DNA of 53,985 nucleotides, from the NCBI GenBank assembly GCA_964483435.1, contig CAZAAO010000001.1, positions 1-53,985 of the forward strand, read 5' to 3'. This document shows positions 10,471-46,971 of the stretch, piece after piece (positions within the stretch are counted from its first letter, which is position 1; every line of letters starts with the position of its first letter). Source of the DNA: an uncultured Candidatus Saccharibacteria bacterium. Its GTDB lineage: Bacteria > Patescibacteriota > Minisyncoccia > Phycocordibacterales > WO2-35-19. The position numbers and the translations under genes were made by a program. Below the pieces are notes generated by a model. The model had not been told where the DNA came from, ran no database searches, and saw only the letters and a list, made by a program, of their open reading frames with translations.

Positions 10471-11070
10471 TTATCCAAGAGACAAAATGTCTTCTGCCAA
10501 TTCTTCAAATTGTTCTTGGTTTATATGCTTCCTATCTTTAAATATTGTTGATTTTGATGCCGGAAACGCAAGGCGAAAGTTTTCAACCGCGCTTACAGGT
10601 ACAACAGGATCATCCTCACTGTGATATAGGAATATATTCGGGGTCTGAAGATCCAATTTGGTAGGCAGTGTGAAGCTTGCAAGAGTGTAGCCCTCTGTAT
10701 CTTTGTCGAAAACAGCACTGACCAAAAACACACCCTTTATCTTTTTTGGAAATACATTTTCACTTAGGTATTTGACGAGGAAAGCTCCGCCAAGTGAATG
10801 CCCTACCAAAATCACGTCTTCATTTAAAAATGGAAAGAGTTTTTCAAACCAGAGCTTCCACTCCGCATACTGAGCATTAGACTTGTTTGGCATTTGAGGA
10901 AGCACGACCTCGTACTCCTCCCCTAGCCGTTGACGGAGCCAAGGTTTCCAATCGTCCTTTTTGGTTGTATATCTTTCAAAATTGATCTCAAAATTTTTTA
11001 AAAAATTTAAATACGCTTCCTCTGATTCGAAAGTATCCCCACCCTGTATTACAACAACTTGTTTTTTCAT
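10471..11070 (-). CDS. alpha/beta serine hydrolase, YdeN/RBBP9-like
   Basis: 199 aa with the nucleophile elbow GHSLGG; a later D and H (HSEDDPVVP, KHINQ) fit the small serine-hydrolase fold. Confidence 0.7.
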   Translation of the reverse strand: MKKQVVVIQGGDTFESEEAYLNFLKNFEINFERYTTKKDDWKPWLRQRLGEEYEVVLPQMPNKSNAQYAEWKLWFEKLFPFLNEDVILVGHSLGGAFLVKYLSENVFPKKIKGVFLVSAVFDKDTEGYTLASFTLPTKLDLQTPNIFLYHSEDDPVVPVSAVENFRLAFPASKSTIFKDRKHINQEQFEELAEDILSLG

Positions 11071-11085
11071 TTTTTTATTGTAGCA
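11071..11085 (-). promoter_or_regulatory. extended -10 placed 6 nt from the start codon (leaderless candidate)
   Basis: The minus strand reads TGC TACAAT AAAAAA ATG. Confidence 0.45.
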
Positions 11086-11156
11086 CTCATTTTTTAATAT
11101 GCTTAGGTATCATTAACCTGATCGATTTCCGTATCCATAATGTCCATTTTAGAGTC

Positions 11157-11200
11157 GGAAAAAAAAGAATGGCCCGTGCAGCGGAAACGCTGCACGGGCC
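11157..11200 (-). terminator. intrinsic terminator after CDS 11209..12102
   Basis: GGCCCGTGCAGCG GAAA CGCTGCACGGGCC followed by a T8 tract on the minus strand. Confidence 0.8.
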
Positions 11201-11208
11201 TAGGGACA

Positions 11209-12102
11209 TCAAGAGTACTTTGCTTCGTACTCTTTCTCGTCCCAGACTTCGATATAGAATTCCTTGCCGGTAACCGGGTCGACCGCGACCAGGAACGGAT
11301 CGGGCAAGTTAATTTGTGTCCTCAACTCGTCCACGTAAAACTCTGTCGTTGGGCAGAGTTGATGGATCTGCCTCATTTTCGAAAGAGCGAAAAGAGGGAT
11401 CTCCTCGTCGTACTTACTTACCGGAATCCGTTCCCAGTAAATCTCTAATCCCTTCAACTGATCATAAGACTCGGCCACGAAGCCGTAGGAACCCAAGATG
11501 GACACCAAGTAGGTCGGCAACAGCAACCAATTGCCAAAATTGGCGGCCGCAAGACCGAGACATACTATTGGCGACCAAATAACCGCGACGAGCCCAAGAA
11601 TATTCTTAGCTCCATCGTTCTTATATTCAGAGCGTTTTTCCCAGAAGTGGTACCATACCGGCAACTGGAACACAGCGGCGCCGACAAACGATTGCCAACC
11701 GCCGATTACACCGCACAAAAACGCGGAGGCGGCAATAAGTGGCGCAATAAAATGCAGTGCAAACCACAGATTACACTCTTCAGCGCTGAGGAGAAACTTG
11801 AGCCATCCGCGCCGAACCATGGACTTCTTATATTTCGCGACCGACTCTCTCGTGTAAGCATCGATTCCTGCTTCTCTCAACGCCAGAGGAAGAGAGTTGG
11901 CTTGCTTTGCAGTTGCAACCGCCGTCTCCCGTAGAGTTTTTTCCTGGCTCACACGGGTCGAGAGCGCCTTGTAACCAAGGCGCTTCGCCGCGTACTCCGC
12001 TAGCTCCTGCGTCTCTTTTTCCAGCAACGCATTCGTTTCAGTTTCGACCGCGGTCACCTTGGCCACGACCGGTTTCTCAAGGACCAACATTCTTTTGTCC
12101 AT
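11209..12102 (-). CDS. hypothetical polytopic membrane protein (297 aa)
   Basis: Strong AGGAGG 7 nt upstream of the ATG, about 4 central TM helices, no family recognised. Confidence 0.65.
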   Translation of the reverse strand: MDKRMLVLEKPVVAKVTAVETETNALLEKETQELAEYAAKRLGYKALSTRVSQEKTLRETAVATAKQANSLPLALREAGIDAYTRESVAKYKKSMVRRGWLKFLLSAEECNLWFALHFIAPLIAASAFLCGVIGGWQSFVGAAVFQLPVWYHFWEKRSEYKNDGAKNILGLVAVIWSPIVCLGLAAANFGNWLLLPTYLVSILGSYGFVAESYDQLKGLEIYWERIPVSKYDEEIPLFALSKMRQIHQLCPTTEFYVDELRTQINLPDPFLVAVDPVTGKEFYIEVWDEKEYEAKYS

Positions 12103-12126
12103 TTAAGGACCTCCTATTCTCTTAAT

Positions 12127-44690: not shown

Positions 44691-44725
44691 GTAATAGAAG
44701 TAGGCATCCGGCTGATTCCGGTTCA

Positions 44726-44740
44726 TGATAAAATATAATT
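44726..44740 (+). promoter_or_regulatory. extended -10 placed 6 nt from the start codon (leaderless candidate)
   Basis: TGA TAAAAT ATAATT ATG. Confidence 0.45.
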
Positions 44741-45151
44741 ATGGAAAACTGCATATTTTGCAAAATAGTAAAAGGAGAAGTGCCATCTTACAAAGTGTAC
44801 GAGGATGACAATTTTTTGGCTTTTTTGGATATCAACCCAGAATCCCCCGGGCATACTTTAGTAATACCAAAAGAGCATCACAGGTGGGTGTGGGACCTGC
44901 CCGCTGGCAGGCAGGTGTCCCCAAATATAGGAGAGTATTTTGAAGTTGTGCGCAAAGTAGCAAAAGCACAACAAAAAGCTTTTGAAACAGATTGGATCAT
45001 TTCCAAAATTGTTGGTGAAGAAGTCCACCACGCCCATATTTGGGTGTTTCCTGGTAACGAAAACAAAAAGGACCCCACTTCGCAAAGATTCGGCAGGGCA
45101 AGCAAAAAAGATTTCGACGGCAACTTAGAAAAAATAAAAAGTTTTATTTAA
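44741..45151 (+). CDS. HIT (histidine triad) family protein
   Basis: CIFCKIV...GHTLVIPKEH...HHAHIWVFP. 136 aa. The 3' end overlaps the pgk stop region by 8 nt (convergent genes). Confidence 0.88.
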   Translation: MENCIFCKIVKGEVPSYKVYEDDNFLAFLDINPESPGHTLVIPKEHHRWVWDLPAGRQVSPNIGEYFEVVRKVAKAQQKAFETDWIISKIVGEEVHHAHIWVFPGNENKKDPTSQRFGRASKKDFDGNLEKIKSFI

Positions 45152-46169
45152 GCGCTTCTATACCAGGAAGTGTGCCGTTTGCTAGGAAGTCCAACATCGC
45201 ACCTCCCGATGTAGATACAAAGGCAAACTTATTCCAGATACCAAGCTCCTTGATTGCTGCGAGAGTATCTCCCCCGCCTAATATCACATGTGCTTTTGAC
45301 TCCGCCAGAGCGCGGGCGATACTTTTGGTACCGTCTGTATATCCTTTTTCGTATGCTCCAACCGGACCATTCCAAAGTACAAATTTGGAATTTTGAATTT
45401 TCAGTTTGAGATTTTCAATTGTCTCCTGATCTACATCAAGAGCATGAACGTCTCCGTGTGGAAACATGACCTTTGGATTTTGAGCTAAGGGCAAATTTTG
45501 CGCCTCGGAAGCAAGAAGTCCTCCTACAAACACTTGATCTGCGATATCCAAAAACTTTTCTATCAGAGGGAGTTTGGTTTCTATTTTGGCACCACCGAGT
45601 ATAAAGAGGAACGGATGCTCTGGACTAAATGCTTTGGAAAGATTTTGAACCTCATCTAGGAAACTAAAACCTGCATAACCTTTTAGTATTTTTGCTATTC
45701 CCACTATCGAAGCGTGCTCTCTGTGCGAAGCAGAAAACGCATCATTTACATAAATTTCACCCAGTTTTGCTACTTTTCGAGCAAATTCTTCATCATTTTG
45801 CTCTTCTTCAGGCCATAGTCTGATGTTTTCGAGTACACACAAATCACCCGGCATAAGACCTGCTATCACATTGCGCCCGGCGTGACTAAACGGATCTTTG
45901 AGAAATATCACATCGCCTTTGGCAATTCCCTTCTCTTTGAGTAGTGCATTTGCAGTATTGAATACGCCTTCCAAACTATCTCCACTTCGGCCAAAATGCG
46001 TGACGAGTATTACACTCCCGTTATTGTTTAATATATATTTTAGAGTCTTAAAAGATGCTTCAATTCTGGAAGTATCGAGCACTTTGCCCTCATCCACTGG
46101 CACATTCCAATCAGCACGCACAATCACGCGTTTAAATTCAAAGTCTTTTATCTCTGATATAGATTTCAT
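45144..46169 (-). CDS. pgk: phosphoglycerate kinase (compact, 341 aa)
   Basis: RADWNVP, NDAFSASHR, GGAKIETKL, GGGDT, STSGGA. Confidence 0.9.
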   Translation of the reverse strand: MKSISEIKDFEFKRVIVRADWNVPVDEGKVLDTSRIEASFKTLKYILNNNGSVILVTHFGRSGDSLEGVFNTANALLKEKGIAKGDVIFLKDPFSHAGRNVIAGLMPGDLCVLENIRLWPEEEQNDEEFARKVAKLGEIYVNDAFSASHREHASIVGIAKILKGYAGFSFLDEVQNLSKAFSPEHPFLFILGGAKIETKLPLIEKFLDIADQVFVGGLLASEAQNLPLAQNPKVMFPHGDVHALDVDQETIENLKLKIQNSKFVLWNGPVGAYEKGYTDGTKSIARALAESKAHVILGGGDTLAAIKELGIWNKFAFVSTSGGAMLDFLANGTLPGIEALK

Positions 46170-46185
46170 AGAGGGTGAGGTGGTT

Positions 46186-46956
46186 TTATTTAATATCCGC
46201 GGCTTTCAAAATATCTGCAAATGTCGCTGGCACGAGCGAGGCGTGACCCACGAGGAAACCATCTACATTTCCAATTTTTATCACTTCATATGCGTTTTCT
46301 GCTTCAACAGATCCTCCGTAAAGGATTTTGACGCTCGAAGCAATATCTTGCCCCAAAAGCTCGCCGAAGTATTTTTTAATATATAAGACCATTTCGTGAA
46401 TATCCGTTGGGTTCATCGCTTCTTTGTATGACTTGCCGATTGCCCAAACAGGCTCGTAGGCAATGATAAGTCCTACCAAATCGCTCTTGCGCAAACCATC
46501 AAAGCACTCTTTGATTTGAGATCGTATGAAATTGAGATATTCCCCTTCTGGATCGCGCTTCCATTCACCAATACAGACGATAGGGGTTATTTTTTGATTG
46601 AAAGCTGATTCGATTTTTCTTTTCACATCCTGGTTTGTCTCGCCCATTTTCCTTCGCTCTGAGTGGCCGATGATCGAGTATTTAACACCCATATCCTTGA
46701 TCATCCCAATACTCGTCTCGCCAGTAAACGCACCTTTTTCATCAGCACTGATATTTTGAGCTCCAAGAGAAACGTTTTTTGAAGCCTTACCTTTCGCAAA
46801 CGTACTTATATATATAGCAGGTGGACAGACCACAACTTCTGCATTTTTGAGCAGTGCCGCGCTCTTTTTGGTTGAGTTATAAATTTTTTTAGCGTCGGCA
46901 AGTGATGCTGGATTCATTTTCCAGTTTGCCACAACGAGTTTTTTCTTCTTCGTCAT
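46186..46956 (-). CDS. tpiA: triosephosphate isomerase
   Basis: VVANWKMN, IIGHSERR, AYEPVWAIG, GGSV. Confidence 0.95.
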   Translation of the reverse strand: MTKKKKLVVANWKMNPASLADAKKIYNSTKKSAALLKNAEVVVCPPAIYISTFAKGKASKNVSLGAQNISADEKGAFTGETSIGMIKDMGVKYSIIGHSERRKMGETNQDVKRKIESAFNQKITPIVCIGEWKRDPEGEYLNFIRSQIKECFDGLRKSDLVGLIIAYEPVWAIGKSYKEAMNPTDIHEMVLYIKKYFGELLGQDIASSVKILYGGSVEAENAYEVIKIGNVDGFLVGHASLVPATFADILKAADIK

Positions 46957-46971
46957 GCACCAATTATAGCA
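46957..46971 (-). promoter_or_regulatory. extended -10 placed 6 nt from the tpiA ATG (leaderless candidate; overlaps the upstream stop codon)
   Basis: The minus strand reads TGC TATAAT TGGTGC ATG. The TAA inside TATAAT is the stop of CDS 46964..48391. Confidence 0.4.

Follow-up and report, generated by a model that had tools for sequence, protein, structure and literature searches.

Extended -10 promoter motifs at ATG start codons and probable leaderless expression in a patescibacterial genome whose 16S rRNA lacks an anti-Shine-Dalgarno sequence

In genomes of GeneMarkS-2 group C, whose members are mainly Actinobacteria (Mycobacterium tuberculosis and Streptomyces) and Deinococcus-Thermus, a Pribnow -10 box lies 6-8 nucleotides (nt) before the start of many operon-first genes, in 25-50% of operons (Lomsadze et al. 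2018, PMC6028130). A subgroup of Parcubacteria that lacks both the anti-Shine-Dalgarno (anti-SD) sequence of the 16S ribosomal RNA (rRNA) and the ribosomal protein uL1 has also been described (Tsurumaki, Saito, Tomita and Kanai 2022, RNA 28:1041, PMC9297842), and the parts of that paper considered here report rRNA and ribosomal-protein losses and expect that SD helices do not form. We describe here a promoter-at-ATG layout, in which a -10 box, typically extended by TG, is placed six nt before an ATG start codon. It is found in the opening 53,985 bases of contig C1 (hereafter the window) of an assembly of 686,805 bases in 74 contigs (96% complete, 44% G+C), and we propose that the genes carrying it are very probably expressed from leaderless messenger RNAs (mRNAs) transcribed from extended -10 promoters.

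The layout is like that of group C in the nearness of the -10 box to the start, in the lack of an SD sequence there, and in the similar share of genes involved, about 30% of those with a free upstream region. It differs in that the remaining genes of group C genomes use SD sites and their 16S rRNA keeps the anti-SD, whereas here the other genes do not generally use SD sites, the anti-SD is gone, and operon-internal junctions are A-rich and SD-free; the promoters here are also mostly TG-extended and are associated with ATG only. GTG starts are also common in mycobacterial leaderless genes. Scarce SD sequences and A-rich, G-poor sequence before internal starts are shared with the Bacteroidota (GeneMarkS-2 group B, PMC6028130), although these keep the anti-SD, which is replaced here, and are not reported to be rich in leaderless genes. 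The genome resembles the Parcubacteria subgroup, as far as the parts of PMC9297842 considered here describe it, in a 16S tail without CCUCC, in that no uL1 gene was found, and in the matching labels of its relatives; the promoter-at-ATG layout is an addition to that account, which in those same parts gives no mechanism for starting translation.

Position and anatomy of the boxes

An exact-match search of the window for TGnTAnnAT (TGNTANNAT) separated from ATG by six nt (a spacer written N6 below) recovers all seven sites listed by a sequence-only reading of this DNA, each at the position and on the strand that it had assigned (Table 1), and every one of the seven ATGs opens an open reading frame (ORF), in line with its claim that all of them are start codons. 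That fewer than one such match should arise by chance is borne out by 100 dinucleotide-preserving shuffles of the window, in which matches average 0.36 and never exceed 2. The spacers (AAAAAA, GGTGTC, GCTTTC, ATTTGT, GTCCCT, ATAATT and TGGTGC) agree with the further claim that these genes have no SD sequence. Five of the seven products have Pfam domains that start within the first residues (for example TIM from residue 6 and HIT/DcpS_C from residue 3), and the other two, from the 95-amino-acid ORF and the gene for 292 amino acids, have no Pfam family. Among the near variants proposed alongside, the TAATAT-N6 box of ndk stands, rpmB proves to carry TATGAT-N6 rather than CATAAT-N7, and ftsH also has a TAATAT-N6 box, which overlaps the TGATATAAT-N8 arrangement read there earlier. 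The box proposed at 1-13 is cut off by the end of the contig. The reduced motif TANNNT-N6-ATG shows no excess across the window (27 sites found, 26.3 expected), and 14 of the 27 sites are on called gene starts, though only about 3% of ATGs are starts; it is the location of the motif, not its frequency, that departs from chance.

Gene calling with a dicodon model, in which each ORF was started at its first ATG without regard to upstream sequence, yielded 666 genes covering 82% of the genome. The enrichment at start codons that the sequence-only reading anticipated is present genome-wide, as a sharp peak at N6 and a smaller one at N7. The spacer between TGnTAnnnT (TGNTANNNT) and ATG is N6 at 71 sites, against about 20 sites at each other spacer, and 53 of the 71 stand before an ORF of 60 codons or more, compared with about 5 for other spacers. 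At called starts, TANNNT occurs 113 times at N6 and 51 times at N7 over a background of about 20, and the peak is confined to ATG, with none seen for GTG and TTG start candidates. Called starts make up 2.9% of the 19,169 ATG triplets of the genome, yet they account for 50 of the 71 extended N6 sites (odds ratio 87, Fisher p = 7e-61) and for 107 of the 358 TANNNT-N6 sites (odds ratio 17, Fisher p = 1e-78). Overall, 161 of 620 genes, about a quarter of all, have a box at N6 or N7, where about 27 are expected by chance, and among them are the housekeeping genes tpiA, recJ, ftsH, secY, ndk and rpmB. An origin in base composition, by which AT-rich intergenic DNA lying beside ATG codons yields such boxes by chance, would fit the unremarkable count of the bare TANNNT-N6-ATG motif in the window. 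We find this scarcely credible, given the excess of the extended motif over its expectation of 0.36, a spacer histogram that is flat but for 6 and 7, the 70% of extended sites that are on gene starts, and the retention of the layout at orthologues in other families.

The annotation-free histograms were restricted to the first ATG of each ORF, unfiltered ones being noisy from the 3-nt periodicity of internal ATGs. A second excess of TANNNT, without the TG extension, is seen in the genome-wide histograms 11 nt before first ATGs (45-52 sites against about 25), and within the window TGGTATAAT stands at N11 before the LamG gene. This excess may reflect promoters with short leaders, or may be a side effect of spacers rich in AT.

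Extended -10 (TGn) sigma-70 promoters, as in Escherichia coli and Gram-positive bacteria, have a TG one base 5' of a TATAAT-like hexamer and a weak or absent -35 element, and transcription starts about 7 nt past the hexamer with a pyrimidine at -1 and a purine at +1. When the N6 set is aligned on the ATG, 58% of sites have T at position -15 and 57% have G at -14, the hexamer consensus is TA(t/a)AAT, and a weak TT(G) lies about 17 nt further upstream, near -35. At position -1, 77% of N6 sites have T or C and 3-4% have G, whereas a pyrimidine is found there in 49% of internal genes without a box. Classical -35/-10 pairs occur 21 times, no more often than in shuffled sequence (25.8). The TG at -15/-14, the hexamer, the weak -35 and the pyrimidine at -1 are together the features of extended -10 sigma-70 promoters, and a standard six-base discriminator would place +1 at the A of the ATG. 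The sites are thus like the extended -10 promoters of E. coli and Gram-positive bacteria in the TG, the hexamer, the weak -35 and the -1/+1 preference, and unlike them in that the starting purine would here systematically be the A of the start codon.

From this arrangement we infer transcription start at the A of the ATG and leaderless translation. The boxes would act as sigma-70-type extended -10 promoters (TGnTAtAAT) with little or no -35 element, at which RNA polymerase would start 7 nt past the hexamer, with the A of the ATG as first base, giving mRNAs with no 5' leader or with one of 1-3 nt at most. The ribosome would bind the 5'-terminal AUG directly, without SD pairing, through a 70S or IF2-assisted route. 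Translation of leaderless mRNAs by 70S or IF2-assisted binding is established. What the leaderless interpretation proposed by the sequence-only reading would lead one to expect of the sequence is found in the N6/N7 peak, the TG, the pyrimidine at -1, the restriction to ATG, the mutual exclusion with SD sequences and the 16S rRNA.

The 16S tail, lineage and conservation

The 3' part of the 16S gene of this genome (430 positions) is outside the window, at positions 1-480 of contig C16, at the contig end. It is absent from the output of the whole-genome Rfam search and was located by plain string search and confirmed by cmscan, which aligns it to model positions 1104-1533 with 286 bits. Helix 45 is intact, and in the tail GUGGAUUAUUUCAAGG stands opposite the GGAUcACCUCCUU of the model; the genome's own 16S has GGAUUAUUUCAAGG at its 3' end in place of GGAUCACCUCCUU, and hence no anti-SD, which answers the question of the 16S 3' end raised by the sequence-only reading. 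A transfer RNA (tRNA) gene is present at 1367-1439 of the same contig, about 890 nt after the 16S fragment. CCUCC is likewise absent in all eight relatives of the same order with an available 16S 3' end (GGAAUAUUUCAAGG, GGAAUUCUUCCGAAGG, GGAAUCAUUCAAUUUG and others) and in one of two genomes of the same class, whereas among the other-phylum tails it is present in all 25, with one further tail reading ACCGCC. A uL1 gene (PF00687), present in 14 of 14 controls, was not found in this 96%-complete genome, which as an incomplete metagenome-assembled genome (MAG) offers no proof of its loss. The most similar FtsH loci (61-80% identity) belong to MAGs that bear the labels Parcubacteria, Paceibacterota, and Kaiser-, Taylor-, Zambryski-, Nomura-, Adler- and Yonathbacteria; these labels would place the genome in the Parcubacteria/Paceibacteria. 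A lineage whose 16S rRNA has no anti-SD fits a leaderless start that requires no CCUCC pairing.

The altered tail raises a different explanation, that the box is an element of a leadered mRNA to which the ribosome binds, either by pairing with the altered 16S tail (AUUAUUUCAAGG) or through S1. The AU-rich tail could conceivably pair with AU-rich boxes, the genome encodes S1-domain proteins, and the box is also found at some tightly packed internal genes (see below). However, complements of the tail (TTGAAATAAT-type CTTGA, TTGAA, TGAAA and GAAAT) are not enriched upstream of starts, the TG at -15/-14 and the weak -35 would be unneeded for pairing, and the spacing is sharper than is usual for SD sequences; moreover the box and its spacing are constant across families of the order whose 16S tails vary, and the box is 2-3 times rarer at internal genes than elsewhere. 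We therefore regard a ribosome-binding element as very unlikely. A newly evolved SD-like pairing with the altered tail was specifically sought and rejected, as no complementary 5-mer or 6-mer is enriched in the interval 2-15 nt before starts when compared with either the interval 24-37 nt or the genome. The CUUGAA found in spacers of ribosomal-protein genes, which is the complement of UUCAAG in the tail, was similarly discarded, CTTGAA not being enriched near starts genome-wide (2 near, 2 far), and we take it for a local repeat.

To assess conservation, about 40 families of the order were sampled with one genome each, and the sequence preceding the ATG of the located orthologues was read. At tpiA, 10 of 29 other families have the box at N6 and 12 have it at N7 (0-5, mostly 0-3, at other spacers), and it is TG-extended in 17. 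At recJ, among 28 other families, it is at N6 in 11 and within N6-N9 in 21, with 15 of the latter TG-extended; at the HIT gene, 7 of 29 other genomes have it at N6, another 7 at N7 and 20 in all within N6-N9, with 5 TG-extended at N6-N9. The layout is thereby kept at the orthologues of these three genes in about 70-75% of 28-29 other families, and the sequence around the boxes is otherwise unconserved. Among 63 Parcubacteria loci of ftsH the box is at N6 in 7, N7 in 10, N8 in 10 and N9 in 17. The divergent recJ-HIT pair, in which the two promoters stand back-to-back within a 230-nt spacer in the window, is syntenic in many families of the order, with tpiA nearby in several.

These orthologues also bear on whether the start codons are correctly assigned. 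If they were not, the promoters could be real and translation could begin at a downstream codon, after an ordinary leader; the starts were after all set by a first-ATG rule, and for two of the seven proteins there is no family with which the N-terminus could be compared. Yet the Pfam models start at residues 1-12 (TIM, HIT and DcpS_C), the tpiA orthologues keep the block M-K-K-x-(I/V)-(I/V)-x-N-W-K from the ATG onwards, and at many orthologous loci, often including those of tpiA, a single ATG is available before the conserved N-terminal block. A box fixed six nt from an ATG that is not a start, in dozens of lineages, would be unexplained, and we give mis-assignment even less credence than a ribosome-binding element.

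An annotation-free statistic, taken at the first ATG of ORFs with 80 codons or more in 124-200 kb from each of ten other genomes, extends the comparison. In the five genomes of the order (this genome, three others in which an anti-SD-less tail is read, and a fifth, G012, in which no 16S is read) the N6/N7 box is in excess by 10.5-16.6 per 100 kb and SD-like 4-mers at N5-8 by 1.9-9.1, whereas in six anti-SD-positive Patescibacteria the box excess is 2.6-9.8 and the SD-like excess 16.5-24.7, with one outlier at 1.8. This is suggestive, though only that given a small sample of genomes that are not independent, of leaderless-type starts throughout the phylum that are about twice as frequent where the anti-SD has been lost.

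Gene context, operon-internal genes and residual SD sites

A box at N6 or N7 precedes 46 of 148 genes with a divergent neighbour, 39 of 136 with a same-strand neighbour more than 100 nt away, 25 of 76 with a same-strand gap of 11-40 nt, and 18 of 136 with a same-strand gap of 10 nt or less. The layout is therefore present at about 30% of genes whose upstream neighbour is divergent or distant and at 13% of those that are tightly packed, and the proposal that it is the first genes that look leaderless holds insofar as it is commonest where a gene requires its own promoter, but some tightly packed internal genes have it too. The box of tpiA falls within the final codons of the gene upstream, whose end is at 46964 (an 8-nt gap), and secY has an internal promoter-type box that lies inside the end of the preceding gene of the ribosomal-protein operon, 4 nt past which it begins.

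Several boxes are directly preceded by terminator hairpins, the clearest being the one that ends pnp, an intrinsic-terminator-like structure of 14 pairs (11 of them G-C) whose T-tail CTTGTTTG continues into the TG of the box of the 292-amino-acid gene. Because this terminator abuts the extended -10, there is no room for a leader between them. Genome-wide, a strong hairpin is present at -65 to -15 in 24% of box-bearing genes and 13% of others.

Operon-internal genes without a box have 50-69% A and 5-14% G from -7 to -1, and their commonest stop-to-start distance is 1 nt. These A-rich, G-poor junctions and close stop-start pairs point to re-initiation that is independent of SD sequences, and suggest that operon-internal genes use it. 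In spacers between ribosomal-protein genes of the window we also observe 4-5 tandem heptads, (A/G)AATCTT as read in the mRNA (AAATCTTGAATCTTAAATCTT...), immediately before the next ATG (Table 1); the two best copies are 86% identical, and two further AT-rich spacers are similar.

SD sequences themselves have not entirely disappeared. At 5-8 nt before starts, GGAG-type 4-mers show an enrichment of about threefold (58 against 18), and SD-like 4-mers are found at 56 of 620 genes where about 35 are expected by chance, mostly at atypical genes richer in G+C; layout and SD-like motif coincide in only 2 of the 161 box-bearing genes. Among the residual-SD genes, 54 have a 4-mer and 43 a 5-mer, and many have full AGGAGGTG-type sites. 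SD-bearing genes differ from the rest in G+C (47.9% against 44%) and in codon usage (0.17 against 0.29 per codon), with p of about 1e-10 for each. About 40-55 genes genome-wide have a strong canonical SD (e.g. ATAGGAGGTCCTTAA-ATG) despite the anti-SD-less 16S, and the four of them inspected in the window (Table 1) have no credible Pfam family. Contamination was considered as their source and rejected, since SD-bearing and leaderless-type genes are interspersed on the same contigs.

Table 1. Promoter-at-ATG boxes and other features of the window. Coordinates are those of the 53,985-base window; N6 denotes six nt between box and ATG.
Position	Strand	Feature	Gene or product
11068..11085	-	TGCTACAAT-N6-ATG	alpha/beta (serine) hydrolase gene 10471-11070 (PF06821/PF00561)
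16247..16264	+	TGCTATAAT-N6-ATG	95-amino-acid ORF 16262-16549, no Pfam family
31600..31617	-	TGCTAGAAT-N6-ATG	DksA/TraR-type zinc-finger protein gene 31234-31602 (PF01258)
32513..32530	-	TGCTAAAAT-N6-ATG	gene for 292 amino acids, family unknown, 31637-32515
44508..44525	-	TGGTATGAT-N6-ATG	recJ 42819-44510 (DHH, DHHA1, RecJ_OB)
44726..44743	+	TGATAAAAT-N6-ATG	HIT-family hydrolase gene 44741-45151 (PF01230)
46954..46971	-	TGCTATAAT-N6-ATG	tpiA 46186-46956 (PF00121 from residue 6)
3272..3286	-	TAATAT-N6-ATG	ndk 2666-3274 (PF00334)
6211..6225	-	TAGAAT-N6-ATG	secY 4945-6213 (PF00344)
16162..16176	-	TAATCT-N6-ATG	gene for 602 amino acids, family unknown, 14356-16164
26536..26550	-	TAATAT-N6-ATG	ftsH 24631-26538
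31222..31236	-	TAATTT-N6-ATG	ChlI/ComM-type Mg-chelatase-like ATPase gene 29695-31224
38791..38805	+	TATGAT-N6-ATG	rpmB (L28) 38803-39054 (PF00830)
42220..42234	-	TAAGTT-N6-ATG	ComEC-type competence protein gene 40627-42222 (PF03772)
44511-44740		divergent spacer with back-to-back promoters	recJ and HIT-family hydrolase genes
32539..32569	-	intrinsic-terminator-like hairpin	end of pnp
1835-2596	+	SD-bearing gene	
11209-12102	-	SD-bearing gene	
28014-28289	+	SD-bearing gene	
29011-29634	-	SD-bearing gene	
7682-7738	-	spacer with tandem heptads	ribosomal-protein genes
8283-8325	-	spacer with tandem heptads	ribosomal-protein genes
4179-4238		similar AT-rich spacer	
4827-4869		similar AT-rich spacer	
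23939-24013		tRNA gene (ARAGORN, Rfam)	tRNA-Ile (UAU anticodon)
27443-27857		transfer-messenger RNA gene (ARAGORN, Rfam)	tmRNA

Weight of the leaderless reading and its significance

Several observations weigh against leaderless expression from extended -10 promoters, or complicate it. The spacing at orthologues spreads to N8-N9, and at ftsH its mode is N9, which would imply leaders of 1-3 nt or unusually long discriminators. The box at 13% of tightly packed internal genes obliges a promoter model to assume promoters within upstream coding sequence, as at tpiA and secY. About 70% of the genes that necessarily head transcription units have no TANNNT at N6 or N7, so that other modes of starting must coexist with this one. 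The gene caller was home-made and covers 82% of the genome, and the proportions of the classes are accordingly approximate. Finally, the key step, transcription starting on the A itself, is one that we infer from the placement of the box.

Leaderless expression is well known in Actinobacteria and Deinococcus, and Parcubacteria without the anti-SD have been described (PMC9297842); a link between the two was not found in the open-access literature. The open-access search, which did not cover subscription journals, found nothing on leaderless genes in the candidate phyla radiation (CPR), Patescibacteria, Parcubacteria, Paceibacteria or Saccharibacteria. One tentative reading, to which we give somewhat less than even weight, is that a lineage at the level of the order has dropped SD pairing, its genes with their own promoters being leaderless and its internal genes depending on A-rich re-initiation, while about 40 orphan genes keep SD sequences that cannot pair (AAGGAGGTG). 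Under that reading the SD-bearing orphans would be recent and poorly translated foreign arrivals, or would be read by an undescribed mechanism, and their contrast with the box-bearing genes gives a means of studying foreign DNA in this lineage's genomes.

There are practical consequences for work on such organisms. Gene callers that score SD sequences will misplace starts here, and a -10 box at N6-N7 is a usable start signal in their stead; where CPR genes are expressed in heterologous hosts, the missing leader is to be considered. For the biology of the lineage, the promoter-at-ATG layout provides a concrete and testable account of how ribosomes without an anti-SD may find the start codons of a large share of their genes.

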